Of a stretch of 35,930 bases of DNA, positions 6,040 through 35,336 are shown one piece after another; the first letter of the stretch is position 1; each line of letters starts with the position of its first letter. Source of the DNA: a virus. Lineage: Duplodnaviria; Heunggongvirae; Uroviricota; Caudoviricetes. The stretch is taken from the IMG/VR virus record IMGVR_UViG_2711768046_000005; one strand, written 5' to 3'. A program made the position numbers and the translations under genes. The notes under the pieces are model-generated. The model searched no databases. It worked only from the letters and a program-made list of their open reading frames with translations, and was not told the origin of the DNA.

Positions 6040-6459
6040 TCGTGTTTCCGCTTCGCCGGAGCGCCTTTTCGCGCCATGTGATGAGTTCGGTCAGGCTCAT
6101 GGGATACAGTTCTGATGGCGGCCAGTGAAATATCACTGCCACATCCGCCATCAGGTCATCGACCGAGAGATTTTTCGGAAACGTCACTGCACCGAGTTCG
6201 GCGACAAAAAACCGACCACCTTACCGGCCAGCGCCACAAGGTCAGGCAGTTCCAGCGCAGCGACTTCCTGCTCGGTCAGCATCGGTGCCGTCATGCGCGG
6301 CAGCACCTTAATCAGTGCATCGACTTCGGAGTTCGCGACCGCTGCCAGACTGACACCGCGCAGCGTCCCGGCATTGGGTTTCATCAGCGTGACCTGTTCG
6401 ATAACCTGCTCACCACGTTTGACCGGATTGTCCAGGGTAATGACATTTTCTTTGTTCAT
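6032..6459 (-). CDS. E': Tail assembly chaperone E+E' produced by programmed -1 frameshift (142 aa)
   Basis: Hand translation after a -1 slip on G GTT TTT TG gives ...FVAELGAVTFPKNLSVDDLMADVAVIFHWPPSELYPMSLTELITWREKALRRSGNTNE*. The stop TAA at 6032-6034 overlaps the T start (ATGAGTAA). The 428 nt plus 1 give 143 codons. Confidence 0.8.
6184..6459 (-). CDS. E: Tail assembly chaperone E (91 aa)
   Basis: P2 gpE length and position. The ORF ends ...KVVGFLSPNSVQ. Confidence 0.9.
   Translation of the reverse strand: MNKENVITLDNPVKRGEQVIEQVTLMKPNAGTLRGVSLAAVANSEVDALIKVLPRMTAPMLTEQEVAALELPDLVALAGKVVGFLSPNSVQ
6205..6211 (-). other. Slippery heptamer TTTTTTG for E/E' -1 frameshift
   Basis: The + strand reads caaaaaa at 6205-6211. 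This is the conserved tail-chaperone frameshift signal of P2 and of the lambda G/GT class. Confidence 0.8.
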
Positions 6460-6515
6460 GGTTTTCTCACTTCTGAATCGGGGTTAACCGGTCAGCCAGG
6501 CTGACCGGATGAAAA

Positions 6516-7034
6516 TCACAGGCCGATATTGCGGCGGTGTTGCTCCAGCCGGTCGACGCCGTTCACCTTCTCAATCATGTTGATGGTGTCGATTTCGACC
6601 AGCTCCTTACCGTCCATCGTCAGCCGGAAATAGGTGCAGACCACGGAGATTTTCGACTCGGTGTCTTCTCCCTGTTTGCCCTCGCCGGTGTCGATTTCTT
6701 TCTGACGTCCACGCATGACCACCTCGACGGCCACCGTTTCGCCGGTATCGTCGCGCTGGTAAGAGCCTGCAAAACGAATCGGTACGGCATCCACACCGGT
6801 TGCGGCGTAAAGCTCCCAGATAACCGAATCCGGGAAGCCACCGAGCGACCACTCCATTGACAGCGCATCGTCATCAAGGCCGAGGTCTACCGGTGCGCTG
6901 CCGTTCATCCCCGCACCGCGATAGTTTTCGAGCTTACGGGTCAGTTTTGGTAGCGTGACGGACTTCGCGACGCCCTGATAGCTGTAGCCGTTCAGAAAGA
7001 CGTTCATTAACTTGAGTTTGCGCGGCATTGCCAT
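6516..7034 (-). CDS. FII: Tail tube protein FII (172 aa)
   Basis: P2 FII length and synteny. Confidence 0.9.
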   Translation of the reverse strand: MAMPRKLKLMNVFLNGYSYQGVAKSVTLPKLTRKLENYRGAGMNGSAPVDLGLDDDALSMEWSLGGFPDSVIWELYAATGVDAVPIRFAGSYQRDDTGETVAVEVVMRGRQKEIDTGEGKQGEDTESKISVVCTYFRLTMDGKELVEIDTINMIEKVNGVDRLEQHRRNIGL

Positions 7035-7046
7035 CGGTCAGGCTCC

Positions 7047-8237
7047 TTAATTGCTGTTAACCGAGGTGACCAGATTTGCCAGGTATTTATCGGTAATACG
7101 CTGGCGCAGGGTCAGGTTTTCAAGAGGAGGCACCGGTGTATAGTCGTAGTCGATATACAGTTTTCCGGCCTTGAGGGTTTCCGCATCGTTGGATTCTTCG
7201 CTGAACCAGCAGGTCGCATCCACGATATAGCCGTTTGTTTTCAGCTCACGGAATTTGGCATTGATGCCGTCAACGATGTCGCGAATCAGCGTTGCGGTGA
7301 TGGGCTTGTCCACCGCCCACATGTGCGCCTCAGCCATCGTGTCGGCCATCACCTGCGCGGTGCGGGTGTAGTTTTCAAAGAGGAACAGCGGGTCATCAGA
7401 GCAGGTACGGTTACCCCAGAAGCGGAAACCGTCGCGGCGAATCAGCGTTGTGACGCCTGCCTCGTTCAGCAGGTCAGCATCGGTGCCGGACTCCTGCAAA
7501 TCCCAGAATACAGATGCGCTGATGCCGGTAACACCGTTTACCCCGACGTTGGACAGCGTTTTATGCCAGCCCTGCTCCTGGTCGATTTTAGCACGCAGCC
7601 CCAGCGCACGGGCGGTGGCATACGCGGTGGCGGTAGTGCTGCTGACCGTATCCCATGCGAGGAAATCCGGCCAGATGACCATCAGCTCACGCTGGCTGAA
7701 ATTCTGGCGGTAGGCTTTCACCTCGGAAATGGTTTTACAGCCCCATGCGCTGATATACCCGAAAGCGCGCAGCTTCTGACAGACTGATGCCAGTGCAACA
7801 GCCACCTCTTTGGTGTCCAGTCCCGGCACGCCGAGAATACGCGGTTTAACACCGGTTACCGACTCTGCCGCCAGCAGGGCTTTCAGTCCGGTATACTGAC
7901 CGTTTTCGTCAGTGGTGCCGATGATATTGGAAACGGTCTGCGCGAGTTTCGTTTCTTCGTCGTCGCCGGTGCCGTCTTCAACACGCACGACAACGGTGAC
8001 CGGTTTTGACTGGTCAGCGATGGCCTGCAACGATGCCGCCAGCGTGCCTTTTTTACCGGCCTTTGCAATTGCGCTCTGCACATTGGTAATCAGCACCGGT
8101 TTATTGAGGGGGAAGGTTTCCGCATCCGCATCGCTGGCCGTGCAGACCATGCCGACAATGGCAGTGGATACAGTGGAAATGACGCGGGTGCCGTCGTTAA
8201 TCTCCAGCACCTGCACGCCGTGATGATAGTCACTCAT
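7047..8237 (-). CDS. FI: Tail sheath protein FI (396 aa)
   Basis: P2 FI length and synteny. Confidence 0.9.
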   Translation of the reverse strand: MSDYHHGVQVLEINDGTRVISTVSTAIVGMVCTASDADAETFPLNKPVLITNVQSAIAKAGKKGTLAASLQAIADQSKPVTVVVRVEDGTGDDEETKLAQTVSNIIGTTDENGQYTGLKALLAAESVTGVKPRILGVPGLDTKEVAVALASVCQKLRAFGYISAWGCKTISEVKAYRQNFSQRELMVIWPDFLAWDTVSSTTATAYATARALGLRAKIDQEQGWHKTLSNVGVNGVTGISASVFWDLQESGTDADLLNEAGVTTLIRRDGFRFWGNRTCSDDPLFLFENYTRTAQVMADTMAEAHMWAVDKPITATLIRDIVDGINAKFRELKTNGYIVDATCWFSEESNDAETLKAGKLYIDYDYTPVPPLENLTLRQRITDKYLANLVTSVNSN

Positions 8238-8751: not shown

Positions 8752-10086
8752 ATGTTTAGCTTAATCATGGCCGGAGAACCGGACGTTTTTGACCGCTGGC
8801 CGTGTATGGACCCTGAGCTTAAAGAAGGCAAGGAAAGCTTCTCGATGTCCCGCATGCTGGAAGGCACCCCAAGCAATATTTACAGAAAATTAACACCAAT
8901 AAGACCCGATACCTTAAGAGTACTCGCCAAGCTACCGGTGTTGTTCATGACCGAAATTTATACAAAAGATGATGAATATGATACAAACAAGTACATCAGG
9001 ATCAGGCTTGGGGAAATAAGAAATTTACGTAAAGATGGTGGCGATATTTTATTTTCTTTCAAGATTAATCATGATTTTGGAGAAATAACGAATCCCCAAA
9101 CGACATTATATAAAGAAACCCTAGGACTAGGATCTTTCGGGTTAAGTCGTACACATTGGGCAGTAAAAAATAAGGATTTGAATATTGTTCTGGAATTACT
9201 TGGTTTAAACAAAAAAAATAGCCATCTGAAAGGTACAATCAAATTAAAAAAACAAACATACCCAGTAGTCGAGAATATTATAGATTATCTTAATTTCATT
9301 AAGAAAAACTTTCGTGATGGTCTCATTACCTTCTATCGTGGACACTCTAAAAGCTCATATGAGCTTGTCCCCTCTCTTTACAGAAAAAATCAAAACGGGA
9401 CGTACAGGCATCTTGCTTCAGAATCTGATTTAGTACGTGAAATACTCAGCGCAAGACCAAATGAATTTAAGGAGGATAAATTTACGATTGATAAACTTGT
9501 CCGCATGCAGCATTATGGCTTGCCTACAAGACTCTTAGACATTACATCTAACCCACTGATAGCATTATATTTTGCTTGCTGTTCGAACCCCGATGAAAAC
9601 GGACAGGTGATTGCGTTTTCAACAAACAGAAAGAAAATTAAATATTTCGACTCAGACACAGTGAGCTGTATAGCAAACTTATCACTTTTATCTTACGAAG
9701 AGTTGGAAAAATTGTCTTCCATTGATGCCAGAAAAGGTAGTATGGAGTTACCTGAACTCACTGATAAACTTGCAGACCTTATACAGAATGAAAAATCATA
9801 TTTCAGAAACAGAATAATCCCTGATGACTTAAAGAAAGTTGTTTTCCTTAAGGCAAAAATAAATAATGAACGCATACAATCTCAGGCAGGAGCTTTTCTT
9901 CTGTTCGGACTTGATCCCATTTTACCGGAAACAGATGCTGAGTTTCCTCTTAACAGAGTGGAGATAGCGAACAAAAATAAAATTCTGGAAGAGCTGGCAC
10001 AGCTTAATATATCCGAAAGCACTGTATATCCCAGCATGGAGAAAACGGCAGCAGAAATTACAAAAAAGTTTTTATCGGTATCATAA
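8752..10086 (+). CDS. FRG-domain protein with an uncharacterised N-terminal domain (444 aa), cargo at the P2 Z/fun position
   Basis: SD AGGAG (8741-8745) lies 6 nt before the ATG. Motifs FYRGH...LVPSLYR (aa 194-211), MQHYGLPTRLLDITSNPLIALYFAC (aa 252-276) and NNERIQSQAGAFLLFG (aa 371-386) fit my recollection of the FRG family (PF08867). The gene is AT-rich and on the strand opposite the flanking late genes. Confidence 0.65.
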   Translation: MFSLIMAGEPDVFDRWPCMDPELKEGKESFSMSRMLEGTPSNIYRKLTPIRPDTLRVLAKLPVLFMTEIYTKDDEYDTNKYIRIRLGEIRNLRKDGGDILFSFKINHDFGEITNPQTTLYKETLGLGSFGLSRTHWAVKNKDLNIVLELLGLNKKNSHLKGTIKLKKQTYPVVENIIDYLNFIKKNFRDGLITFYRGHSKSSYELVPSLYRKNQNGTYRHLASESDLVREILSARPNEFKEDKFTIDKLVRMQHYGLPTRLLDITSNPLIALYFACCSNPDENGQVIAFSTNRKKIKYFDSDTVSCIANLSLLSYEELEKLSSIDARKGSMELPELTDKLADLIQNEKSYFRNRIIPDDLKKVVFLKAKINNERIQSQAGAFLLFGLDPILPETDAEFPLNRVEIANKNKILEELAQLNISESTVYPSMEKTAAEITKKFLSVS

Positions 10087-13561: not shown

Positions 13562-14462
13562 CCGAGCCTCCGGTCACGACGCGGTATTCGGTACAGAAAG
13601 ACGCCTGCGTACTGTTGAGCACGATGTCGGCCAGCGGTGCAGCCAGTTCGACACGCTGCACGCCTTCCACATGCAAAGCGGCATAAATGGCAGATAGTCG
13701 GATGTCGCGCCCCAGCCGGTGCTGTGCCGTGATATACGCTTCCAGTTTTTTCACGGCGGCAGCGCGAATGGGTTCGCTTTCGGGGCCAGGGTAAAGGTAA
13801 AGCGTGGCATTTATCTGGTATTCAACGATGGCGGCAGACTGCACGGTCACACGGTCGGCCACCGGTCTGACGTCCTCGCCATTCAGGGCGTTGCGCACCA
13901 CAGCCAGCAGGTCTTCAGATGCCACACCGTTATTTTCACGTGACAGCACAGAGATGGTGACACAGGCCGGAGACGGACTGGTGACAGAGATATCCGCGAC
14001 ACGCCCGTCGGCACTGCGACCATGATACTGATAGGCACCCACCGACCCGGCAACGCTTAAACCTTCAAACGCCTGCTGAATACGCAGACGATAATCGGTG
14101 TCAGACTCCATCACTGCCGGTGTCGGCGGGATGGTCGAATCATCTGCCGGGGTGATAGTCAGGCGTGTGGTGTTGTAATTGGCACCAATCACATCAAGGT
14201 CATTACCGGCAGCACAGGCCAGCATCACCGCCCGTGCGGCCTCATTCACACGCTGACGCCAGATAAGCTCACGATAAGCATTTTCCTCCAGCAGTTTGAC
14301 GAGAGGTTCGGATTCCAGCGTCAGGGTACGGGCGACCGCCTCCTGCTGGTCTTCCGGGTAAAGGGAAATTAGTGTCGCCTTGCGTTCGGCAAGAATGGTT
14401 TCAAAGTCCAGCTCCTCGACCACATCCGGTGCGGGTAGCTGGTTCAGGTCGATAATCGGCAT
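13554..14462 (-). CDS. J: Baseplate wedge protein J (302 aa)
   Basis: P2 gpJ length and synteny. Confidence 0.9.
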   Translation of the reverse strand: MPIIDLNQLPAPDVVEELDFETILAERKATLISLYPEDQQEAVARTLTLESEPLVKLLEENAYRELIWRQRVNEAARAVMLACAAGNDLDVIGANYNTTRLTITPADDSTIPPTPAVMESDTDYRLRIQQAFEGLSVAGSVGAYQYHGRSADGRVADISVTSPSPACVTISVLSRENNGVASEDLLAVVRNALNGEDVRPVADRVTVQSAAIVEYQINATLYLYPGPESEPIRAAAVKKLEAYITAQHRLGRDIRLSAIYAALHVEGVQRVELAAPLADIVLNSTQASFCTEYRVVTGGSDE

Positions 14463-14466
14463 GGTT

Positions 14467-14814
14467 TCAACTCACAGGGATGGTTAACGAAAGTGGCTGG
14501 CCGGTGTCGTTGTGCTGGCCGGTTAACGTGACCGTCATTCGCCCGTCAAAACCGCGCTCAGTGGTGACGGATGACAGGGTGACGCGGGGTTCCCATTTCA
14601 GCACAGCCATGTAACAGGCGACCTTAATCTGCAACTCAAGCGCCGGGGTCTGCGGCTGGTCAATCATTGATGCCAGCAACGAGCCGTAATCACGACGCAT
14701 CACCCGTGAGCCGACCGGTGTACGCAGGATATCGCCGATACTCTGGCTGATATGCTCAAGGTCAGTGACAGTCAGGCCATCACTGCGATTCATTCCGAGA
14801 TAACGCGCTGTCAT
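14467..14814 (-). CDS. W: Baseplate protein W (115 aa, gp25-like)
   Basis: P2 gpW length and synteny. There is a 4-nt overlap with V. Confidence 0.9.
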   Translation of the reverse strand: MTARYLGMNRSDGLTVTDLEHISQSIGDILRTPVGSRVMRRDYGSLLASMIDQPQTPALELQIKVACYMAVLKWEPRVTLSSVTTERGFDGRMTVTLTGQHNDTGQPLSLTIPVS

Positions 14815-15446
14815 AAAGGACTCCCGGTTGTGCCGCCGCTGTCGCCGGGGTGTTTATGGGTATGCAGTACCTTACCGTTTGATGAGAGTTCACCGCCGGT
14901 ATGTTCAATGTTGCCGCGCATCGTCCCGCCCTTCTGCACTTCCAGCGTGCCGGTAATCAGCCTGTTGGTGCAGACCACCTCCGGTGTGTCCAGGGTGACG
15001 CGGGTTGATGCTTTCACCATGACCACCGGCACCGTGGCAGTAACAGAATCAGAGGCCGTCACGCTGGCCGTTTTAATTCCGCTTACCGTAAGTGCACTGG
15101 TTTCGGGTTCATATTCAATCACCGCCCCGTCAGGGAAACGGATATGCAGGGCATCCGCCGACGCAGACGGCGCGGGGTTATCGCCGGAATAAATCCCCGG
15201 CAGAACGAACGCCGTGTCGAGTTCACCGCCCACGGCCAGAATCAGCACCTGTTCCCCCACGGAAGGTGCCCACCATGTGCGCGAACGCCCGGCGCGATGG
15301 GTCAGCCACTGAAGCCAGTCGGTGCACATGCCGCCGGTCTGCACACGGCAGCGACCGGCGTTAAGGTCGGTTTCGACGACAATGCCGGTGCGTATCATGT
15401 TGCGCAGTGCGCGCGCGAGTTCCTGAATATTTGATAATGTGCTCAT
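14811..15446 (-). CDS. V: Baseplate spike protein V (211 aa)
   Basis: MSTLSNIQELARALRNMIRTGIVVETDLNAGRCRVQTGG... is recognised. The start was trimmed to Met24 of the 234-aa ORF to give the P2 length of 211 aa. Confidence 0.85.
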   Translation of the reverse strand: MSTLSNIQELARALRNMIRTGIVVETDLNAGRCRVQTGGMCTDWLQWLTHRAGRSRTWWAPSVGEQVLILAVGGELDTAFVLPGIYSGDNPAPSASADALHIRFPDGAVIEYEPETSALTVSGIKTASVTASDSVTATVPVVMVKASTRVTLDTPEVVCTNRLITGTLEVQKGGTMRGNIEHTGGELSSNGKVLHTHKHPGDSGGTTGSPL

Positions 15447-15529: not shown

Positions 15530-16273
15530 ATGGATAAATATCAAATCTGGGAAAATCAAAAAGACACCATCGCCCACCAAGAGTATTTAAAAATCTCCGA
15601 CACCAATTTACTTGGACATATGCATATTGCCAATTACGAAGTTGCCCAACATGAATTAAGCAAATTCAACTCCCCTGACATTGTTTCCCGTCATTCATTT
15701 AACAGAGACAAATTTAAAAAAGAACATTTAAACATATCAAGACACCTTTTCAATTATATATCTTCAGCATTATCATTTAGAGATTCAACGCGCAACCTAC
15801 TTAAAACAAAAGCATTAAATATTGCCGACATTAAAATCAAATCAGAGGCATTCATCAATCATGAATTCCGAAATAATCCAGTAATAAAATTAATGGAGGA
15901 CTTAAGAAACATCCTGACGCATCAAAACATGATCGCCCCATCAATATCATCATTCATGCACCTCCAAAGAAATATAAACATGCACGGCTTTTCATTTAAG
16001 ATTGAAAGAATCTTAAACAATGACAGAACCACCAAACAAACAAAAGAATATTTAATCTCACTAAAGCAAAAAAACTTATTCATTTTACCGATAATAGAAG
16101 AATACCAATACACGACTCTTAAGTATCAACACTGGCTTTTAGCAAGTATCTACACTGTTCATCAAGATACTTACCAAGAATACTGGAATGCGAGAAAAAA
16201 CATCATGAACGAATGGGGAGGAGACACTCAGCTAATACCTAAAGAGAGTGAGCTCACTTATTTAACCAGATAA
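15530..16273 (+). CDS. Hypothetical 247-aa protein with two RNxxxH (HEPN-like) motifs, cargo at the P2 orf30 position
   Basis: SD AAGGA (15517-15521) lies 8 nt before the ATG. The gene is very AT-rich and divergent from V. Motifs are LRNILTH (aa 125-131, nt 15902-15922) and QRNINMH (aa 146-152). I recognise no other family. Confidence 0.6.
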   Translation: MDKYQIWENQKDTIAHQEYLKISDTNLLGHMHIANYEVAQHELSKFNSPDIVSRHSFNRDKFKKEHLNISRHLFNYISSALSFRDSTRNLLKTKALNIADIKIKSEAFINHEFRNNPVIKLMEDLRNILTHQNMIAPSISSFMHLQRNINMHGFSFKIERILNNDRTTKQTKEYLISLKQKNLFILPIIEEYQYTTLKYQHWLLASIYTVHQDTYQEYWNARKNIMNEWGGDTQLIPKESELTYLTR

Positions 16274-22847: not shown

Positions 22848-24620
22848 ATGACCATCACCACAGACACCACTCTTTTACACGACCCGCGTCGTCAGGCGGC
22901 GCTGCTGTACTGGCAGGGGTTTTCCGTGCCGCAGATTGCCGCCATGTTGCAGATGAAACGCCCGACGGTGCAGAGCTGGAAACAGCGCGACGGCTGGGAC
23001 AGCGTTGCCCCCATCAGCCGTGTCGAAATGAGTCTGGAAGCGCGACTGACCCAGCTCATCATCAAACCGCAGAAAACCGGTGGTGACTTCAAGGAAATTG
23101 ACCTGCTCGGACGCCAGATTGAACGACTGGCACGGGTAAACCGCTACAGTCAGACCGGCAACGAGGCAGACCTTAATCCGAACGTCGCTAACCGCAACAA
23201 AGGCGGGCGTCGCAAACCGAAAAAGAATTTTTTCAGTGACGAGGCCATCGAAAAGCTGGAGCAGATTTTCTTTGAGCAGTCTTTCGACTATCAGTTGCAC
23301 TGGTATCGCGCCGGGCTTGAGCACCGCATCCGCGATATCCTGAAATCCCGCCAGATTGGCGCGACGTTTTATTTTTCCCGCGAGGCGCTGCTGCGCGCCC
23401 TGAAAACCGGCCATAACCAGATTTTTCTGTCGGCCAGTAAAACGCAGGCGTATGTGTTCCGCGAATACATCATTGCCTTTGCCCGGCTGGTTGACGTTGA
23501 CCTGACCGGTGACCCGATTGTCCTGGGCAATAACAGCGCAAAACTGATTTTTCTCGGCACCAACTCCAACACCGCACAGAGCCATAACGGCGACCTGTAC
23601 GTCGATGAGATTTTCTGGATCCCGAATTTTCAGGTACTGCGTAAGGTGGCATCAGGTATGGCCTCACAGAGTCACCTGCGCTCGACCTATTTCTCCACCC
23701 CGTCCACGCTGGCGCACGACGCCTACCCGTTCTGGTCGGGTGAACTGTTCAACCGGGGACGCGCCAGCGCCGCCGAACGCGTGGAAATCGACATCAGTCA
23801 TAACGCCCTTGCCGGAGGTCTTCTCTGTGCGGACGGCCAGTGGCGGCAGATTGTCACCATTGAGGACGCCCTGAAAGGTGGCTGCACGCTGTTCGACATT
23901 GAGCAGCTCAAACGTGAAAACAGCGCCGACGATTTTAAAAACCTGTTCATGTGTGAATTTGTTGACGATAAGGCGTCGGTGTTCCCGTTCGAGGAGCTGC
24001 AACGCTGCATGGTCGACACGCTGGAAGAATGGGAAGACTATGCGCCGTTTGCCGCCAATCCGTTCGGCTCCCGCCCGGTATGGATTGGTTACGACCCGTC
24101 ACACCGTGGCGACAGCGCCGGATGCGTGGTGCTGGCACCGCCGGTGGTGGCCGGTGGCAAATTCAGAATACTTGAGCGTCACCAGTGGAAAGGCATGGAC
24201 TTTGCCACCCAGGCTGAATCCATCCGCAAACTCACCGAAAAATACAACGTCGAATACATCGGTATTGATGCCACCGGCCTCGGTGTCGGCGTGTTCCAGC
24301 TCGTGCGCTCGTTCTATCCCGCCGCGCGCGACATCCGCTACACGCCGGAAATGAAAACCGCAATGGTGCTCAAGGCAAAAGACGTCATCCGCCGTGGCTG
24401 TCTGGAATATGACGTCAGCGCCACCGACATCACCAGCTCGTTTATGGCTATCCGCAAGACCATGACCAGCAGCGGACGCAGCGCCACCTATGAGGCCAGC
24501 CGCAGCGAGGAAGCCAGCCACGCCGACCTCGCCTGGGCGACCATGCACGCCCTGTTAAATGAGCCACTCACCGCCGGTATCAGCACCCCGCTGACATCCA
24601 CCATTCTGGAGTTTTACTGA
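22848..24620 (+). CDS. P: Terminase large (ATPase) subunit P (590 aa)
   Basis: The ATG at 22848 (MTITTDTTLLHDPRRQAALLYWQGFSVPQIA...) gives the P2 gpP length. A GAGG SD lies upstream. The TTG-extended ORF was rejected. Confidence 0.9.
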   Translation: MTITTDTTLLHDPRRQAALLYWQGFSVPQIAAMLQMKRPTVQSWKQRDGWDSVAPISRVEMSLEARLTQLIIKPQKTGGDFKEIDLLGRQIERLARVNRYSQTGNEADLNPNVANRNKGGRRKPKKNFFSDEAIEKLEQIFFEQSFDYQLHWYRAGLEHRIRDILKSRQIGATFYFSREALLRALKTGHNQIFLSASKTQAYVFREYIIAFARLVDVDLTGDPIVLGNNSAKLIFLGTNSNTAQSHNGDLYVDEIFWIPNFQVLRKVASGMASQSHLRSTYFSTPSTLAHDAYPFWSGELFNRGRASAAERVEIDISHNALAGGLLCADGQWRQIVTIEDALKGGCTLFDIEQLKRENSADDFKNLFMCEFVDDKASVFPFEELQRCMVDTLEEWEDYAPFAANPFGSRPVWIGYDPSHRGDSAGCVVLAPPVVAGGKFRILERHQWKGMDFATQAESIRKLTEKYNVEYIGIDATGLGVGVFQLVRSFYPAARDIRYTPEMKTAMVLKAKDVIRRGCLEYDVSATDITSSFMAIRKTMTSSGRSATYEASRSEEASHADLAWATMHALLNEPLTAGISTPLTSTILEFY

Positions 24621-25654
24621 TGAGCAAGAAAAAAGGGAAAACACCGCAACCTGCGGCAAAAAAAATGACCGCCAGCGCCCCGAAAATGGAGGCATTCACC
24701 TTTGGTGAGCCGGTGCCGGTACTCGACCGCCGTGACATTCTGGATTACGTCGAGTGCATCAGTAACGGCAGATGGTATGAGCCGCCGGTCAGCTTTACCG
24801 GTCTGGCGAAAAGCCTGCGTGCTGCCGTGCATCACAGCTCGCCGATTTACGTCAAACGCAATATTCTGGCCTCGACATTTATCCCGCATCCGTGGCTTTC
24901 CCAGCAGGATTTCAGCCGCTTTGTGCTGGATTTTCTGGTGTTCGGTAATGCGTTTCTGGAAAAGCGTTACAGCACCACCGGTAAGGTCATCAGACTGGAA
25001 ACCTCACCGGCAAAATATACCCGCCGTGGCGTGGAGGAGGATGTTTACTGGTGGGTGCCGTCCTTCAACGAGCCGACAGCCTTCACGCCCGGCTCCGTGT
25101 TTCACCTGCTGGAGCCGGATATTAATCAGGAGCTGTACGGCCTGCCGGAATATCTCAGCGCCCTTAACTCTGCCTGGCTGAATGAGTCGGCCACGCTGTT
25201 CCGCCGCAAGTATTACGAAAATGGCGCACATGCCGGATACATCATGTACGTCACCGATGCCGTGCAGGATCGCAACGATATCGAAATGCTTCGCGAAAAC
25301 ATGGTTAAGTCGAAAGGCCGCAATAACTTTAAAAATCTGTTTCTCTATGCCCCGCAGGGGAAAGCCGACGGCATTAAAATTATCCCCCTCAGTGAAGTGG
25401 CGACGAAGGACGATTTTTTTAATATCAAAAAAGCCAGCGCCGCAGACCTGCTGGACGCGCACCGCATCCCCTTTCAGTTGATGGGCGGCAAGCCGGAGAA
25501 CGTCGGGTCGCTGGGTGATATTGAGAAAGTGGCAAAGGTCTTTGTCCGCAATGAGCTTATCCCGCTACAGGACAGGATCCGCGAGATAAACGGCTGGCTC
25601 GGTCAGGAGGTCATCCGCTTTAAAAACTACTCACTGGACACTGACAACGGCTGA
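24620..25654 (+). CDS. Q: Portal protein Q (344 aa)
   Basis: P2 gpQ length. TGATG overlaps the P stop. Confidence 0.9.
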   Translation: MSKKKGKTPQPAAKKMTASAPKMEAFTFGEPVPVLDRRDILDYVECISNGRWYEPPVSFTGLAKSLRAAVHHSSPIYVKRNILASTFIPHPWLSQQDFSRFVLDFLVFGNAFLEKRYSTTGKVIRLETSPAKYTRRGVEEDVYWWVPSFNEPTAFTPGSVFHLLEPDINQELYGLPEYLSALNSAWLNESATLFRRKYYENGAHAGYIMYVTDAVQDRNDIEMLRENMVKSKGRNNFKNLFLYAPQGKADGIKIIPLSEVATKDDFFNIKKASAADLLDAHRIPFQLMGGKPENVGSLGDIEKVAKVFVRNELIPLQDRIREINGWLGQEVIRFKNYSLDTDNG

Positions 25655-25884: not shown

Positions 25885-25915
25885 AAAAAGCCCTCCAGGA
25901 CTGGAGGGCTTTTCT
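25885..25915. terminator. Bidirectional rho-independent terminator between cos and the kinase operon
   Basis: A 9-bp stem agccctcca (25889-25897) / tggagggct (25902-25910) with loop ggac is flanked by aaaaa and tttct. It lies 60 nt downstream of the operon's last stop on the - strand. Confidence 0.85.
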
Positions 25916-25969: not shown

Positions 25970-27037
25970 TCATTTCTTAGCTTTCACAACCGGATGCGCG
26001 CGATCATGTCCACCGCCACGATGCTTAGAAAATATAACCTTTTCATTAGTAAAAGGTTTTTGGCCATAGACACTATCATAGTGGAAAAAGACGTTCGGAA
26101 GATGAGGCACACGGATGAATCCATACTTCACTCTAGTATCACCGATGACCCCAAAAACCCTTGTACTTACTGGGTAGCATAGTTCACCACAACGCATCAC
26201 TAATTCATCTGCTGTTGGGCGTTCAGAAGGTTCCAATTTTAAACAATCTTCTATAAGTTTAATTATTTCATTTGCCAATGGCGCATACTGTCTATTTGAA
26301 AATATAAAGTCAGGGTAAGGAACATGCGTGCCAGAAAGTATTTTTGGTATAGCCATATAACCAATACCAAAAGGGTATTTTCCAGTAAGAATCCTGAACA
26401 TCATCGCACCCAATGCCCAAATATCTGTAGGTTTCGAAACCTTACCTTGACTCTGTATGATTTCCGGTGCCATATATGGCAAAGCCCCGATAGCCGTTTG
26501 CGAAGAACTAATTGAATCTTGACCATTTCTTGCAGCCTCATCAATTTCATCTCCGGCCATCTTTGAAATGCCGAAATCCGTAATTTTTATCTCTGTAGCA
26601 TTGATACCACCGCCTACCATTATATTTGAAGGTTTGAGGTCCCGGTGTATGACGTCAACATGATGCGAAGCAGACAGAGCTTTAGCTAAATTATGAAATA
26701 TTTTAGCAGTTAAATATGGATCAACACTTGAATAAGTGTCTAAAATAGCCTTATCCAAGTCAACTCCATCAATAAATTCCTCCGTTAAAAACTCTCTACC
26801 CTCATCATCAATGAAGTAATCTAAGGTTTTAGCCACATTAGGATGATTAACCCTTGATGCTAATATTGCACTTCTATGAAACCTTTTTTCAGCAGATTTA
26901 TTTTTGGGAGTTTTGAGAGCCACATGCCTCGAGAGAATATTATCCATTGCCAAATAAACTTTTTGCATACCGCCTTCACCAATCTCCCTCAATATTGTAT
27001 ATCTGCTAACTTGAATTCCTGGAGTCAGATTTATCAT
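25970..27037 (-). CDS. Hanks-type Ser/Thr protein kinase with C-terminal cold-shock-domain-like module (355 aa)
   Basis: Kinase motifs are IGEGGMQKVY, VALK (K42), HRDLKPSN (D132), DFG (D154), LPYMAPE, DIWALG and ERP. C-terminal aa 291-352 read FGVIGDTRVKYGFIRVPHLPNVFFHYDSV...EKVIFSKH. This resembles CSD RNP1 (K-G-F-G-F-I) and RNP2 (V-F-V-H-F). SD GGAGGTG is present, and the ATGA overlaps the upstream gene. Confidence 0.85.
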   Translation of the reverse strand: MINLTPGIQVSRYTILREIGEGGMQKVYLAMDNILSRHVALKTPKNKSAEKRFHRSAILASRVNHPNVAKTLDYFIDDEGREFLTEEFIDGVDLDKAILDTYSSVDPYLTAKIFHNLAKALSASHHVDVIHRDLKPSNIMVGGGINATEIKITDFGISKMAGDEIDEAARNGQDSISSSQTAIGALPYMAPEIIQSQGKVSKPTDIWALGAMMFRILTGKYPFGIGYMAIPKILSGTHVPYPDFIFSNRQYAPLANEIIKLIEDCLKLEPSERPTADELVMRCGELCYPVSTRVFGVIGDTRVKYGFIRVPHLPNVFFHYDSVYGQKPFTNEKVIFSKHRGGGHDRAHPVVKAKK

Positions 27038-28098
27038 AACACCACCTCCGGATGGGAAAGGTCAAATGTAATGAAGACCCGCTCTTTTCTTGGCCGAGAA
27101 GTCTCTCCCAGAATAATAACACATGAATCAGGCAAAATATTATATTGCTTTGCAGCTATATTATTCACATACACCTCACCACTTAAACTCGATATATAAA
27201 ACTCTGAACCAGAATATTTCACCTCAATAGTCCCGACCCCTGAATTATTAAAAGCCGCAGATTTATTTGTTGAAGAAATGATGACGGGTGGAGTGTTATC
27301 AGAGATTAACAATGCTCTATGAGAGTTGTAGAGAACGAATTTTTTTAGAGTCTGACACACATCAGCCATATCAGGTCTCTCACAAGGATTCGTATCTAAA
27401 CATTGGAAAAGCAATTCTTTTACCTGAGTTGGTAACTGTATATTAGAATTATCAAAAGGATTAGACAATAATTTTTTGGGTAAAACTCTCATTTCCGGTG
27501 GTAGTGGGGTCTTAGCCAAAAACATGGCCGTTACAGCAAAAGCATATGTATCTATGGATTTTGTAAACGCTACTTGATGTAAAAATAATTCAGGTGCAGC
27601 ATATGTTGGGGTTCCTTTAAAACCTATTGTATTAGCTTCATCAACATTTCTAGATAGTCCGAAGTCATAAATCTTCACTACTCCCTCAGAATCAATTTTC
27701 ATGTTCCCAGGCTTGATATCCCTATGAATAATATCATGAGAATGTATCTCAGAAATACCCGAAGATATTTGCCACAAAATTTTAATCAAATCTTCAGAAT
27801 TTAATATGCGATCCTCTACTTCCAATAATGAAGGTCCGTCAACATACTCTTCGACTATAGCAATTCCTTTACCTTGATAATTAATAACATCATAAAGCTC
27901 TACTACATGTTTTGATCTTAATTTCATCAATGCTGATAACTCATCCATCATTCGAGGAGAATCATCAGGATTACTTATGGACTTTATAGCGACAAATCTT
28001 TCGAGGTGAGTATCCAAGCATTTGATCACGCAACCAAATCCTCCCGAAGCCTCTTCTTCAGTCCTCTTATATCTTGCAGGGAGAGTAAAATTAGTCAT
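27034..28098 (-). CDS. Hanks-type Ser/Thr protein kinase with FHA-like C-terminal beta domain (354 aa)
   Basis: Kinase motifs are SGGFGCV, VAIK (K39), HRDIKPGN (D126), DFG (D145), GTPTYAAPE and CERP. The C-terminal roughly 90 aa (...IEVKYSGSEFYISSLSGEVYVNNIAAKQYNILPDSCVIILGE...) have an FHA-like strand pattern. SD AAGGAG is present, and there is an 8-nt overlap (ATGACTAA) with the phosphatase gene. Confidence 0.85.
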   Translation of the reverse strand: MTNFTLPARYKRTEEEASGGFGCVIKCLDTHLERFVAIKSISNPDDSPRMMDELSALMKLRSKHVVELYDVINYQGKGIAIVEEYVDGPSLLEVEDRILNSEDLIKILWQISSGISEIHSHDIIHRDIKPGNMKIDSEGVVKIYDFGLSRNVDEANTIGFKGTPTYAAPELFLHQVAFTKSIDTYAFAVTAMFLAKTPLPPEMRVLPKKLLSNPFDNSNIQLPTQVKELLFQCLDTNPCERPDMADVCQTLKKFVLYNSHRALLISDNTPPVIISSTNKSAAFNNSGVGTIEVKYSGSEFYISSLSGEVYVNNIAAKQYNILPDSCVIILGETSRPRKERVFITFDLSHPEVVL

Positions 28099-29257
28099 CT
28101 TTATCTCCTTTAGTGGAGTTTTTCTCAGAGAATGAAATATCTAACTGTGAAATATTATCTAACTTATCATTATTGTTAGCTTCGATAACATTCCTTCCCT
28201 CATCACTCTTTATATTACTATTTTTTTTCTTTGTACGTGATTTCCTTTTCGATACATTTTTTTTGTTAGAAATTTCATTACTGCATTCTAACTCAGTAAC
28301 TTTTCTATCAATAACATTTTCAACCGTAGCTGAGTTAGGTATATCTAACGGCGCAGGTTGCACGCTAATTACTTTCATCTCACCAAAAGGATCCCATAAA
28401 TTAATTACATCCCCAGATGATACATCCAAAGCACTTAGGATGTTCGAAATCTCAACTACCGCAATCGACGCATTATCAAATCCACCAAACCAACTAGCTA
28501 GATCTATAACTCTTTTAGCGAACACTCCAGTATTATTGGAGTGAGCATATAATTTTCTCAAATTATTACTGTCAATGGTATGAGCACCATCTGAAGTTAA
28601 TGCAACCACCCCAGGTACGAGCCGAATATCGTGAAAATGTATCTCAAGAACACCATCAAGACCTATAAACTGTACTAACTCGCCACCTAACCTAGAATCA
28701 ATAACACCTGAGTCACTACCAAGATGCTCATTATATTTCTTTGCCAATACAGCTAATGTATCATCCTCACTAATTTGTTTTATGTGTTCAGCATTAATGG
28801 AATATATGCGACTATCCCCGACATTTATTGCTGTAATGTTATCGGAGTCATCTACAGCTAAGGCAGATAACGTAGCCCCACCGTTCCCATTATATACTTT
28901 CAAAACCGATTCATTTGCTTTTAAAACGGCGATTTCAAGACATTGTCTAATTGGCAAGCCTGAGTGTTTAATTATCTCGGTAAAAAAAGATGATACGGTC
29001 AATGAAGCAGCATTCGCTCCCCCTTCCATCCCCCCCATACCATCTGCTAAAGCGATGACAATCATGTCCTTATTCTTACTAAAAGGACGAAATTTTAATA
29101 CAGCTACCCGGTCTTGGTTCTCTTTCCTAACTAAACCTATGTCTGTAGCAATAGCTGCAGGTAGCATAGATACTCTTCGTACAGATGAAGAGATATTTTT
29201 TCTATGCAGCCAAGCGTGTATCTGTTCATGAAGGATCTCGTAAGAGTCTCGACTCAC
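28091..29257 (-). CDS. PP2C (PPM)-family Ser/Thr phosphatase with Lys/Asn-rich C-terminal tail (388 aa)
   Basis: A GTG start is preceded by a strong SD GAGGAGG. PPM motifs are RKENQD (D49), ALADGMGG (D72), GGATLSAL, VGDSRIY, LTSDG (D223) and DNASIAVV (D261). The tail at aa 325-388 is low complexity. Confidence 0.85.
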   Translation of the reverse strand: MSRDSYEILHEQIHAWLHRKNISSSVRRVSMLPAAIATDIGLVRKENQDRVAVLKFRPFSKNKDMIVIALADGMGGMEGGANAASLTVSSFFTEIIKHSGLPIRQCLEIAVLKANESVLKVYNGNGGATLSALAVDDSDNITAINVGDSRIYSINAEHIKQISEDDTLAVLAKKYNEHLGSDSGVIDSRLGGELVQFIGLDGVLEIHFHDIRLVPGVVALTSDGAHTIDSNNLRKLYAHSNNTGVFAKRVIDLASWFGGFDNASIAVVEISNILSALDVSSGDVINLWDPFGEMKVISVQPAPLDIPNSATVENVIDRKVTELECSNEISNKKNVSKRKSRTKKKNSNIKSDEGRNVIEANNNDKLDNISQLDISFSEKNSTKGDKDD

Positions 29258-29478: not shown

Positions 29479-31764
29479 CTATATACATCGTTGATTTATT
29501 GGAAGCCCCGGCCACTCATCAACAACCGGATATGTAAATTTTTTCTCGCCATATGCCACCCTCGCACCTCGTGCTAGTACATCCAGCTCCCACCGTTCCG
29601 GCGTGATGCCATGCTGTGCGAGGTCAAACCGGATACGCGATATCTGGTCGCGCTGCGATTTAGTCAGCCTTGCCGATGGCGCAATTTCATTAGGTTTTAA
29701 CGGGCCTCCGTTTCTCTGCTGACGATTTGGTGTTCTCAGGCCGTGTTTTAATGCGCCCCTGAGCGCCCTCACTACATCCGGGTCATTCCATTCGATAACA
29801 CCTTCATCAACCAGATTAAGTACTGCTGCGGCGTGCTCAGAAGGTGTGGGAGCCGGTAACGAAGTATCACCACCAGTGAGCTTTCCACAGTTATTGACAG
29901 GACTCCGAGGCGCGACGATGCCGCTTTTTAAAGTCAAAGGCTCAACGACCGGAACTTTCGGCACAATGCGCCAGTCCGTCGTTCTGGTGATATGAATATG
30001 ACGCGCGCCGAGATGCGGCGCGTAAATGCCGACCACTCTCTCGACTTCTTCCTCGTACTCGTTAACTTCATCCGACGGGCTACGGGCGACTCTGACAGTC
30101 TGACAATCGCGCGGGACATTTGCCCCACCCTGCGCGCTGATATACAACGCAAAATCACCACTGTCTGCGGCGGCGCGTGCAGCCTCGACGCGCTCGTCAA
30201 ACTCATCAGCAATGCTGACGCCGCGCGGCAATTTGCGTAGTTCACGGTAAGCCCCCATTGTCGGCAGGCCAACCGTTTTAAATTGCGGGATGCGCCACGT
30301 TGACGCCCATGCGGTAACAGCCGCTGCAGTGTCTTTCAGCGGCCTGCCGGTGTCGTTATCGAGCTGACCATCCAGTGCATAGCCGTCGATGTTTTTTGAA
30401 ATGTATTTCGCGATATATCCCGCAGCACCGCCCCGGTTAAGGTGTTTTGCCTGAAAACGGTTTCGCGCGGCTCCTCTTTCGTCGCCATCCTCTTTGAGCG
30501 CATAGCGACGCATGATTTCGATAATCTGGTTACGCTGGCGTGAATTACAAAAAAGCATCATATGCCAGTGCGGCGTTCCGTCGTGGTGTGGCTCGACGAC
30601 ACGCAAACCGTAGACCTGTAAATCATTATCCTTGAATGCCGTGCGCATCAGGCTCCAGATACGGCAGAGATAACGCTGCGCATCCTTTGGATTAAATGCC
30701 TCATCGTTCCAGCCGTGATTAAGCTGCACGGTTTTACTTTCGCCTTTTCCTACCTGACGTGTCGGGTGATACTTTGACGGCGCGGTCAGCGTGATAAACA
30801 TCCCCACATCACCCTCTGCAGCGGCGTAACGCTCAATACCGGCAATGGTGTTCATCAGCTCCATCCGGCGAATTTCAGGATTAGAAATACTGCCCATCAC
30901 CTTACTGATAAGGTCGATGCGCTCGCCGGTTTCCCTGTTTTCAAGGTCACACGATTTAAGAAATTCCAGATTTGCCTGGCGGCGCGCACGCACATCACGA
31001 ATGGCGTGTTTACTGGCATAAGGAGAACGGTCTTTATTGACCTCCCCGACAGCTATCAGTAACGCTTCATGCCAGCGCATACGCTGGCCTTTAAGCTGAT
31101 GAGTCCACCACTCATCGTTAAACAGACGGGCAATGGCAGAATATGCCTGCCTCGTGGTCATCTGTCCTTTACGGTATTTTTTCCAGTAGAGCGGGGAAAT
31201 ATTGAAAGCACGTGCAGCGCCAGCAACATGACCATACAGGTGAGCCTGCGCCTCATCCGTAAACAGCGATTCTTTTTCACCATGCGCATCAACCCATGCA
31301 TCGCAGAGTTCCTCATACATCATGAAAAGCTGCGATGAGATACGGGCGGCAAACTTTTTCAGCTCCTTGTCATTCATTCCCGGCAGGCGCGCATAGTGGT
31401 CACGCTCTGCCAGAAACAGCAACGACGCGTCGGTGTTCATTTCATGGCGCTGATTCACACGCTCAATGCGCGGCCATAAACGACGCTGAAAAGTAGATGT
31501 GAGGAAATAAAACCCGTGCACCGGGCTTTTATTGCGCCGGATGTAGTCATAGCGTGAAGTAAACAGCGAGCGCAAAAAGTAAGGCAGGCGGTTAATCGTG
31601 GATAAAACACCTTGCACCTGACGCATCTCGTCACGTGTAAGAGGTCTTTCGCGCCCGACAGCCTCGCGTGGCGCGTTCCATGCATAAGCACCGGTAAATG
31701 CCTTACCGGTGCCTGCGGTAAATGCTGACGGAGGGACAAAACACCCGGAGGCTTTAACGGCCAT
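29479..31764 (-). CDS. A: Replication initiation (rolling-circle nickase) protein A (761 aa)
   Basis: MAVKASGCFVPPSAF...GAYAWNAPREAVGRERPLTRDEMRQ... is recognised as P2 gpA. The start was set at Met15 of the 775-aa ORF to give the remembered 761 aa. The longer start at 31806 is not excluded. Confidence 0.85.
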   Translation of the reverse strand: MAVKASGCFVPPSAFTAGTGKAFTGAYAWNAPREAVGRERPLTRDEMRQVQGVLSTINRLPYFLRSLFTSRYDYIRRNKSPVHGFYFLTSTFQRRLWPRIERVNQRHEMNTDASLLFLAERDHYARLPGMNDKELKKFAARISSQLFMMYEELCDAWVDAHGEKESLFTDEAQAHLYGHVAGAARAFNISPLYWKKYRKGQMTTRQAYSAIARLFNDEWWTHQLKGQRMRWHEALLIAVGEVNKDRSPYASKHAIRDVRARRQANLEFLKSCDLENRETGERIDLISKVMGSISNPEIRRMELMNTIAGIERYAAAEGDVGMFITLTAPSKYHPTRQVGKGESKTVQLNHGWNDEAFNPKDAQRYLCRIWSLMRTAFKDNDLQVYGLRVVEPHHDGTPHWHMMLFCNSRQRNQIIEIMRRYALKEDGDERGAARNRFQAKHLNRGGAAGYIAKYISKNIDGYALDGQLDNDTGRPLKDTAAAVTAWASTWRIPQFKTVGLPTMGAYRELRKLPRGVSIADEFDERVEAARAAADSGDFALYISAQGGANVPRDCQTVRVARSPSDEVNEYEEEVERVVGIYAPHLGARHIHITRTTDWRIVPKVPVVEPLTLKSGIVAPRSPVNNCGKLTGGDTSLPAPTPSEHAAAVLNLVDEGVIEWNDPDVVRALRGALKHGLRTPNRQQRNGGPLKPNEIAPSARLTKSQRDQISRIRFDLAQHGITPERWELDVLARGARVAYGEKKFTYPVVDEWPGLPINQRCI

Positions 31765-32029
31765 ATGAGCCAAAAGCCTCTGAACAACGCTTGCTGAGTT
31801 GCTCAACCTGCGCGTTTAAATCAGCAAAAGATTTTGCGCTTCCGGTCAGAATATCGTGATGCATCAGGCCGGAAACGAGCTGGCCTAATTTCGGGTAATA
31901 ACCAACCACCGCCAGCCATTCCTGACCGGCGTTTTTACCGCTTTCCGCTCTCTTTTTCTCGTGGAGAATAAACTGAAAGCTGTCACTGGTAACGACATAA
32001 CGTTCGCCAATTTCAATACGAATACTCAT
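31754..32029 (-). CDS. P2 orf83-position early protein (91 aa)
   Basis: Its position immediately upstream of A and its coupling to the neighbouring genes support the call. Function unknown. Confidence 0.7.
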   Translation of the reverse strand: MSIRIEIGERYVVTSDSFQFILHEKKRAESGKNAGQEWLAVVGYYPKLGQLVSGLMHHDILTGSAKSFADLNAQVEQLSKRCSEAFGSYGR

Positions 32030-34322: not shown

Positions 34323-35336
34323 ATGGCAATCAAAAAACTCGATGATGGTCGATATGAAGTGGACATCCGCCCTACTGGACGTAATGGAAAACGCATCCGT
34401 AGGAAGTTTGATAAGAAAAGCGAAGCTGTCGCTTTCGAGAAATACACGTTGTACAACCACCACAATAAAGAATGGCTATCAAAACCAACAGACAAGCGAC
34501 GTCTGTCGGAGCTGACACAGATCTGGTGGGATTTAAAGGGTAAACACGAAGAGCATGGGAAATCTAATCTTGGAAAAATTGAAATCTTCACAAAAATAAC
34601 GAATGACCCATGCGCATTTCAAATTACGAAATCGCTTATCAGCCAGTACTGCGCCACCCGAAGAAGTCAGGGTATTAAACCTTCGAGTATCAATCGTGAT
34701 TTAACATGTATTAGCGGCATGTTTACAGCCCTGATTGAAGCGGAGTTATTCTTTGGTGAGCACCCTATCAGAGGGACAAAAAGGCTTAAGGAGGAAAAAC
34801 CAGACACAGGCTATCTCACGCAGGAAGAAATTGCCTTACTGCTTGCTGCTCTTGACGGCGACAACAAAAAGATTGCGATTCTTTGCCTGAGTACTGGAGC
34901 ACGTTGGGGAGAAGCAGCTCGTTTGAAAGCAGAAAATATCATCCATAACCGCGTCACGTTTGTTAAAACGAAAACAAACAAACCACGCACCGTCCCGATC
35001 TCAGAGGCTGTTGCCAAAATGATCGCGGATAACAAACGAGGTTTTTTATTCCCTGATGCTGATTACCCTCGCTTCAGACGAACAATGAAAGCAATAAAAC
35101 CGGATTTGCCAATGGGGCAAGCCACACATGCACTAAGGCACAGCTTTGCCACTCATTTCATGATTAATGGAGGAAGTATTATCACGCTACAACGGATACT
35201 AGGTCACACGCGGATTGAGCAAACTATGGTTTACGCTCATTTTGCGCCAGAGTACCTTCAGGACGCCATTTCTCTTAATCCGCTAAGAGGTGGTACTGAG
35301 GCCGAGAGTGTCCACACAGTGTCCACAGTAGAGTAA
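34323..35336 (+). CDS. int: Tyrosine integrase (337 aa)
   Basis: P2 Int length and sequence. Catalytic signature: ARWGE (R), HALRHSF (H-x-x-R), GHTRIEQTMVYAH (H...Y). Confidence 0.9.
   Translation: MAIKKLDDGRYEVDIRPTGRNGKRIRRKFDKKSEAVAFEKYTLYNHHNKEWLSKPTDKRRLSELTQIWWDLKGKHEEHGKSNLGKIEIFTKITNDPCAFQITKSLISQYCATRRSQGIKPSSINRDLTCISGMFTALIEAELFFGEHPIRGTKRLKEEKPDTGYLTQEEIALLLAALDGDNKKIAILCLSTGARWGEAARLKAENIIHNRVTFVKTKTNKPRTVPISEAVAKMIADNKRGFLFPDADYPRFRRTMKAIKPDLPMGQATHALRHSFATHFMINGGSIITLQRILGHTRIEQTMVYAHFAPEYLQDAISLNPLRGGTEAESVHTVSTVE
35309..35327. promoter_or_regulatory. Int arm-type binding repeats (2 x TGTCCACA, 11-bp spacing), int-side arm
   Basis: Perfect direct octamers lie at 35309-35316 and 35320-35327 inside the int 3' end. 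They mirror the pair at 1574-1592. Confidence 0.55.

Follow-up and report, generated by a model that had tools for sequence, protein, structure and literature searches.

The closest described counterpart of the locus studied here is the kinase-kinase-phosphatase (KKP) module, an anti-phage toxin-antitoxin module reported by Guo et al. (2024, Nat Commun 15:7244; PMC11341870). Prophages, among them P2 and P4, harbour over 90% of the more than 1200 KKP clusters described, and the search rule used for KKP asks for PP2C, Pkinase and Pkinase in this order in genes of 900-1300 bp (PMC11341870). One of the two kinases, PfkA, is defined by a C-terminal cold-shock domain (CSD) with a GFI/A motif (PMC11341870). 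PfkA and the second kinase, PfkB, are toxic only jointly and without any phage, whereas the phosphatase PfpC neutralises them by dephosphorylation; the kinase pair phosphorylates many host proteins and arrests growth (PMC11341870). Toxicity is lost upon mutation of HRD or DFG in both kinases as well as upon truncation of either C-terminal domain or mutation of GFI (PMC11341870).

Protection against lytic phages has been reported for KKP from Pf6, Shewanella, Vibrio, Salmonella and an E. coli P2-type prophage and depends on the GFI/GFA motif, and KKP of E. coli 15EC039 protects against T4 and T-odd phages (PMC11341870). T4 escape mutants map to Gp59, which binds PfpC and modestly inhibits it, a trigger that was shown for the KKP of the E. 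coli P2 prophage (PMC11341870). RepG4 of Pf4 also binds PfpC and promotes its degradation (PMC12328805). Reported substrates comprise MvaU, PolA, TopA, DnaG, InfB, Tsf and RpoD and also FtsZ and MinC/E (PMC11341870). The DNA-binding antitoxin PfiA is a further reported substrate. The isolated CSD co-purified with the isolated C-terminal ('FHA') domain of PfkB in one pull-down, in which the CSD band was represented by one peptide with a -10lgP of 23.6 in mass spectrometry, and an AlphaFold2 model of the PfkA-PfkB heterodimer was presented (PMC11341870). Binding of nucleic acids by the CSD was mentioned as a possibility (PMC11341870).

The window, a stretch of 35,930 nucleotides of viral DNA (IMG/VR record IMGVR_UViG_2711768046_000005), carries on its minus strand three genes orthologous to those of PfpC, PfkB and PfkA, with which they agree in order and size. 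These are a PfpC-like PP2C Ser/Thr phosphatase (28091..29257, 388 aa), a PfkB-like Ser/Thr kinase (27034..28098, 354 aa) and a PfkA-like Ser/Thr kinase with a C-terminal CSD (25970..27037, 355 aa). With lengths of 1167, 1065 and 1068 bp, the three neighbours agree with the published search rule in domain order and gene size. Stop and start codons overlap throughout: the phosphatase gene and the PfkB-like gene share 8 nt, and the start codon of the kinase-CSD gene overlaps the stop codon of the gene upstream (ATGA). In a P2-like prophage, the cassette is flanked by the portal gene (24620..25654) on one side and by the gene of the replication endonuclease gpA (29479..31806) on the other; the surrounding P2-type genes also comprise those for terminase, capsid, cox and integrase. 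Its GC content is 0.36-0.39, compared to about 0.55 for the prophage around it. The earlier note on this DNA had described the kinase-CSD protein as a prophage Ser/Thr kinase, which agrees with this gene context and with its Pkinase domain.

Sequence comparison with the published proteins, taken together with the 'FHA' and 'CSD' construct sequences from the supplement of PMC11341870, assigned the two kinases to their counterparts. The alignment of the kinase-CSD protein with PfkA_MP extends over 343 aa, the CSD included, at 52% identity (E=2e-121); for the second kinase and PfkB_MP the identity amounts to 43% across 351 aa (E=7e-96). The window shares with KKP of Pseudomonas phage Pf6 and with the related modules from P2, P4 and Mu-like prophages not only gene order and sizes but also the individual components, i.e. 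a PP2C protein, a kinase with a beta-rich C-terminal domain, and a kinase with a CSD that carries the GFI motif. The window carries a different allele, about 50% diverged from the Pf6 proteins. Two differences from PfkA_MP concern the CSD itself. The RNP2 position is occupied by His in the window protein and by Asn in PfkA_MP, and the loop before the GFI motif is one residue shorter (GFI at 306-308 compared to 307-309 in PfkA_MP). The accessions of the KKP cluster list and of E. coli 15EC039 (IMG gene IDs, MCM) were not among the cluster members of the window proteins that we examined.

From these data the kinase-CSD protein is very probably a PfkA-type kinase encoded by the last gene of a KKP module, which forms a low-GC accessory cassette in the portal/gpA hotspot, with the CSD being part of the effector. 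Since a CSD attached to a kinase is the published hallmark of PfkA, the window holds an ordinary member of a known system. The fusion had been considered an unusual architecture in the earlier note; this view cannot be maintained, as the combination of kinase and CSD is already known from the large number of published KKP clusters (PMC11341870). Our analysis thus adds little to the inventory of the system, namely one more KKP copy in an E. coli P2-like prophage.

The other two proteins of the cassette fit this assignment in their domain content. The phosphatase matched PF13672 (PP2C_2) at aa 45-167 with 26.7 bits against a cut-off of 24 bits, is annotated in RefSeq as a PP2C family phosphatase, and ends in a K/N/S-rich, low-complexity C-terminal tail. 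The PfkB-like kinase (Pfam Pkinase, E=1.7e-42) has HRD at aa 125 and DFG at aa 145. HRD and DFG are intact in both kinases of the window and GGM is present in the PfkA-like kinase only, being replaced by GGF at position 19 of the PfkB-like kinase. The C-terminal beta-rich domain of the latter (aa 254-354; 27037..27339, minus strand) aligns with the published 'His-FHA' construct. Neither the PfkB-like tail, nor 38 homologues, nor the published 'FHA' construct gave a Pfam match to FHA (PF00498), and a profile of the domain did not find FHA chains in the PDB. An hhalign comparison with four verified FHA domains resulted in a probability of 3.4% and covered the C-terminal half only, where the stretch SGEVxINN...LPGSCVVxLG was placed against SxNGTxVN...LxxGDxIxIG. 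As judged by these sequence methods, the FHA label of the PfkB C-terminal domain is not reproduced; homology to the published domain is clear.

Like the kinases of the window, PD-T4-6, mad6 and Stk2 of Staphylococcus are Ser/Thr kinases implicated in anti-phage defence. PD-T4-6 and Stk2 are single-kinase systems that are not known to have a paired second kinase, a PP2C protein or a CSD. For Stk2, this single-kinase organization has been described (PMC11341870). Both window kinases matched the PADLOC models mad6 (E about 1e-54) and PD-T4-6 (E about 1e-50), and no PADLOC match was obtained for the PP2C gene. The matches span the catalytic domain only (aa 7-292 of 355, and positions 47-319 of the 659 positions of mad6), and the mad6 and PD-T4-6 labels were for this reason rejected as identity of the system. 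The arrangement of three genes corresponds to KKP instead.

The kinase-CSD protein is composed of a catalytic domain at aa 13-280 (26198..27001, minus strand; Pfam Pkinase, E=4.7e-45), with GGM at aa 22, HRD at aa 131 and DFG at aa 154, and a CSD-type OB barrel at aa 293-353 (25979..26161, minus strand), which is supported by Pfam, profile searches, structure modelling, Foldseek and alignment. A cold-shock-like OB fold had been noted from the sequence at 25982-26167. These coordinates are correct because their minus-strand translation is aa 291-352 (STRVFGVIGDTRVKYGFIRVPHLPNVFFHYDSVYGQKPFTNEKVIFSKHRGGGHDRAHPVVK); the peptide quoted for this range actually covers aa 295-351. The RNP1 region reads K304-Y305-G306-F307-I308, and the residue listed previously as F306 is G306. 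Its core, the GFI motif (aa 306-308; 26114..26122, minus strand), is equivalent to GFI 307-309 of PfkA_MP. The RNP2 equivalent VFFHY (V316, F317, F318, H319, Y320) is encoded at 26078..26092 on the same strand. The model of the full-length protein reached a pLDDT of 89.3 and a pTM of 0.88, and its closest PDB matches are PknB kinase domains. Because of this pTM value, the model suggests that the CSD has a fixed position on the kinase.

Scanned as an isolated sequence, the tail was only weakly related to known families. It matched the Pfam CSD model PF00313 with E=0.003 and 17.8-18.0 bits, under the cut-off of 27 bits, and the S1-like model PF14444 with E=0.006, again sub-threshold, and a single-sequence search of the PDB gave only two weak matches, both of them cold-shock domains. 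The published CSD of PfkA_MP likewise remained under the PF00313 threshold (19.6 bits). The Pfam comparison proposed in the earlier note stayed below the threshold with the single sequence. Of 52 family members scanned singly, 41 matched PF00313 with E-values of 0.01 or lower (2.6e-9 for the best of them) and 45 matched PF14444. A profile built from the 52 tails yielded 44 matches at E<=1 among all PDB sequences. All but two of these were CSD or S1-like, the exceptions both having E>0.3. The best matches were Unr CSD789 (7zhh; 7.9e-9) and variants of Bc-CspB (1.4e-6 to 1.5e-5), and human CSDE1 was found at 6e-6. The same profile, searched against 1.84 billion representative proteins, retrieved its own family, in the form of full-length proteins matched near aa 285-357 and of C-terminal fragments, and the matches outside the family were mostly proteins with multiple CSDs.

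Structure prediction led to the same result. The AlphaFold2 model of the tail has a pLDDT of 89.7 and five strands, at positions 11-19, 23-27, 34-37, 51-57 and 64-70. Its best 50 Foldseek matches in the PDB were CSD-type or closely related S1-like domains with TM scores of 0.62-0.78, including CspA, CspB, YB-1/YBX2, Unr/CSDE1, Lin28, the CSD of RNase II and the S1-like domain of DBC1. The superposition on CspA (1mjc, 2l15), which had been named as a check on the fold, gave TM scores of 0.76-0.81. The profile search, the model and the Foldseek matches bear out the fold read from the sequence and confirm that the last approximately 65 residues of the 355-aa kinase are a genuine CSD-type five-stranded OB barrel, well beyond chance.

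The kinase-CSD family is large. At least 4564 proteins were found at E<=1e-10 among 8000 candidates scored, and the best 120 relatives listed are about 347-364 aa long with 96-100% query coverage. When 52 members were aligned, conservation of the tail equalled that of the kinase domain, and the tail showed the consensus R-x-x-G-x-V-x-x-I-x(4-5)-[WYF]-G-F-I ... D-V-F-F-H-x-D-S-V-Y-G ... G-D-x-V-x-F-S-K-F-x-G-G-G-A-D-R-A-H-P-V-V-K-L. G306 is invariant, and F307 and I308 are at least 90% conserved. We aligned the family to CspA, CspB, CspE and Tm-Csp; this alignment agrees with HMMER alignments to PDB chains. For the roles of individual CspB positions we refer to the CspB-oligonucleotide structures 2es2 and 3pf4.

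The central positions are kept. The equivalent of CspB F15 is W, Y or F in 51 members, that of F17 is F in 50, that of I18 is I in 51, that of F27 (F317) is F in all 52, and that of H29 (H319) is His in 47. The assignment of KYGFI and VFFHY to RNP1 and RNP2, made from the window sequence, was upheld, with the F15, F17, F27 and H29 equivalents being conserved in 47-52 of the 52 members, and the spacing to the later V-x-F strand also fits, KVIFSK aligning with AVSFEI of CspB. Of the seven positions at which CspB stacks on bases, three have disappeared: D, N or S takes the place of W8, F30 varies (the window protein has Y), and the loop with F38 is deleted. The equivalent of R56 is G. Judged from these kept and lost positions, the central RNP1/RNP2 platform is strongly constrained, and its periphery has been lost. 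In addition, Y288, R293, G325, R346 and P349 are invariant in the family and absent from canonical Csps, and these family-specific residues indicate a specialised CSD subfamily.

With CspA and CspB (PF00313) the tail has in common the five-stranded OB barrel (TM 0.7-0.8, rmsd 1.5-2.5 Å), the RNP1 core Y/F-G-F-I and the RNP2 core V-F-x-H, and an equal spacing of the strands. In contrast to these proteins, it is part of a kinase instead of being a separate protein, shares only about 20-28% identity with them, has no equivalents of W8, F30, F38 and R56, and possesses its own invariant motifs SVYG and GGGxxRAxP. Unr/CSDE1 and the S1-like domain (PF14444) of DBC1/CCAR2 provided the best profile and structure matches, among them 7zhh and CSD4 of CSDE1 (2yty). 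They are eukaryotic RNA- or protein-binding repeats without a kinase fusion, and they resemble the tail only as members of the same domain superfamily.

What is known from the orthologues allows a role of the CSD to be proposed. By analogy, the two kinases of the window would together constitute the toxin and the PP2C phosphatase the antitoxin, and a phage replication protein would inactivate the phosphatase and thereby release the kinases. The CSD, and specifically its GFI motif, would be needed for the joint toxicity of the kinases and for defence. We infer that the CSD acts as an assembly and/or targeting module of the PfkA-PfkB pair via its conserved RNP1/RNP2 face, and that it probably is not the primary phage sensor. 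Two points weigh against the assembly part of this proposal. It draws on a single pull-down, in which mass spectrometry supported the CSD band weakly, and on a complex modelled with AlphaFold2, and the strict conservation of the F15, F17, F27 and H29 equivalents fits nucleic-acid binding equally well.

Among the alternatives, a degenerate CSD that does not bind nucleic acids has the best prospects, and we regard it as possible, if somewhat short of an even chance. Such a domain would be purely structural or engaged in protein-protein interactions, contacting the C-terminal domain of PfkB and/or its own kinase lobe. Co-purification of the 'FHA' and CSD constructs and the published heterodimer model are consistent with it, as are the frequent matches of family members to the S1-like model PF14444 (45 out of 52) together with the occurrence of the SIRT1-interacting DBC1 domain (8ez6) among the matches. 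The invariant residues that are foreign to canonical Csps, the loss of the peripheral stacking residues, and the pTM of the full-length model, which suggests a fixed position of the CSD, point in the same direction. However, the evidence from the pull-down is thin, and the residues of the RNP motifs that remained invariant are exactly those that contact nucleic acids in canonical proteins.

This conservation could also reflect a minimal binding site for single-stranded nucleic acids, formed by Y305, F307, F317 and H319, which would place PfkA-PfkB on replication, transcription or translation complexes; we consider this rather unlikely. If true, it would account for the preponderance of nucleic-acid-associated proteins among the substrates, and the CSD might add a second, nucleic-acid-dependent input beside the trigger acting on the phosphatase. 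The explanation that the CSD binds nucleic acids for targeting rather than sensing, and so anchors the two kinases at substrates associated with the nucleoid, the replisome or the ribosome, is plausible but seems unlikely. It is in line with the conserved RNP1/RNP2 core and with substrates that are overwhelmingly associated with nucleic acids (MvaU, PolA, TopA, DnaG, InfB, Tsf, RpoD and PfiA), but FtsZ and MinC/E are substrates as well. Furthermore, the stacking platform is partly lost, which argues for weak nucleic-acid binding at best.

A trigger sensor, as which the CSD had been put forward in the earlier note, would activate the kinase upon binding of phage ssDNA or RNA, such as replication intermediates or transcripts; this is very unlikely, since the target of the known triggers is the phosphatase, with Gp59 inhibiting it and RepG4 promoting its degradation, and because the GFI-dependent toxicity of PfkA plus PfkB needs no phage. 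In uninfected cells the GFI mutant loses this toxicity, and the motif therefore serves effector function rather than specifically sensing. The central ssNA-binding residues of CspB (F15, F17, F27 and H29) are indeed kept, defence of an orthologue is abolished by the GFI mutation, and the T4 trigger Gp59 is a fork- and ssDNA-associated helicase loader, so that replication intermediates are present when the system fires. Against this stand the loss of the stacking positions W8, F30 and F38, the exchange of R56 for G, and the Asn in place of the RNP2 His in PfkA_MP. The aromatic-motif mutants that had been suggested for a defence assay have in effect been made, since mutation of GFI or truncation of the CSD in the orthologue abolishes toxicity and defence (PMC11341870).

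The full-length cassette was found in 14 out of 5426 complete E. coli genomes. The identical kinase-CSD sequence is present on 574 contigs, where it is always annotated just as 'serine/threonine-protein kinase'. Public annotation names neither the CSD nor KKP. The same order of three genes was observed beside integrases in Pseudoalteromonas, Caballeronia and a metagenome contig, with relatives that are 52-56% identical; the first gene of the Caballeronia counterpart has no recorded PP2C match. A full-length profile scan of genome contigs retrieved mainly generic Hanks-type kinases and two full-length relatives only. In a tblastn search of phage genomes, the sole full-length relative was encoded by Klebsiella phage Kp4865-2 (45% identity). 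A promoter scan of the cassette resulted in 11 sites compared to 12.7 in shuffled sequence and thus in no excess. A weak terminator-like hairpin (25902..25889, minus strand) is located downstream of the stop codon of the kinase-CSD gene.

The P2-like prophage is flanked on the left by a host gene for a U32 peptidase, which opens the window (1..1362, plus strand), and on the right by a tyrosine integrase gene close to the end of the window (34323..35336, plus strand). Therefore, the window contains essentially the entire prophage. From 50,697 deposited phage genomes, only that of Klebsiella phage Kp4865-2 encoded a full-length relative of the kinase-CSD protein (OK490418.1, 8633-9664; 45% identity, 96% coverage), whereas the exact protein was found on 574 bacterial contigs. 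Thus, the kinase-kinase-phosphatase (KKP) module has been observed almost exclusively in integrated prophages.

Stop and start codons overlap across all three genes of the cassette. The phosphatase gene and the first kinase gene share 8 nt (28091..28098), and the two kinase genes share the sequence ATGA (27034..27037), a 4-nt overlap that is also present in two distant relatives (L082 and L083). This gene arrangement suggests that toxin and antitoxin are translationally coupled.

In the RNP2 motif of the cold-shock domain, the kinase-CSD protein of the window reads V-F-F-H (aa 316-319), as do 47 of the 52 homologues in the family alignment. In contrast, the characterised Pf6 protein PfkA_MP reads V-F-F-N (PMC11341870, supplement). 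Since the Pf6 protein that was tested carries asparagine at this position, at least one experimentally studied orthologue requires the RNP2 histidine for neither toxicity nor defence.

The C-terminal domain of PfkB was labelled FHA (PF00498) in the description of KKP (PMC11341870). The corresponding domain of the PfkB-like kinase (27037..27339, minus strand), 38 homologues and the published 'His-FHA' construct of PfkB_MP from Pf6 all lacked a match to FHA in Pfam, and profile searching of the PDB gave no FHA chain either. Alignment with genuine FHA domains by hhalign reached a probability of 3.4%, and the canonical GR...SxxH phosphothreonine-binding motif was not found. The PP2C phosphatase ends in a low-complexity tail rich in K, N, S and D (aa 301-388; 28094..28357, minus strand; …NKKNVSKRKSRTKKKNSNIKSDEGRN…KGDKDD) that had no match in Pfam. 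For PfpC it has been reported that the C-terminal region is disordered and that clipping leaves antitoxin activity intact (PMC12328805).

Two further regions of reduced GC content were noted in the prophage. A gene for a 444-aa FRG-domain protein (8752..10086, plus strand; PF08867, E=2.8e-22) lies in a second low-GC island (GC 0.356) within the tail-gene region, and its product was assigned by PADLOC to the candidate defence family PDC-S15 (E=6.7e-99). Hence, the prophage probably carries this gene as another accessory cargo for defence. A 247-aa ORF (15530..16273, plus strand), encoded on the strand opposite to the flanking morphogenesis genes, lies in a stretch whose GC content of 0.456 is lower than that of the surroundings; searches of Pfam and PADLOC gave no match.

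Similar features were noted in Caballeronia sp. KNU42 (L083) at 4741..8077 and 13998..14954. For the first gene of its distant KKP-like cluster, which encodes 398 aa, no PP2C match in Pfam is on record. The neighbourhood also encodes a protein in which a caspase is fused to a helicase, as well as a further FRG-domain protein that echoes the FRG gene of the window prophage.
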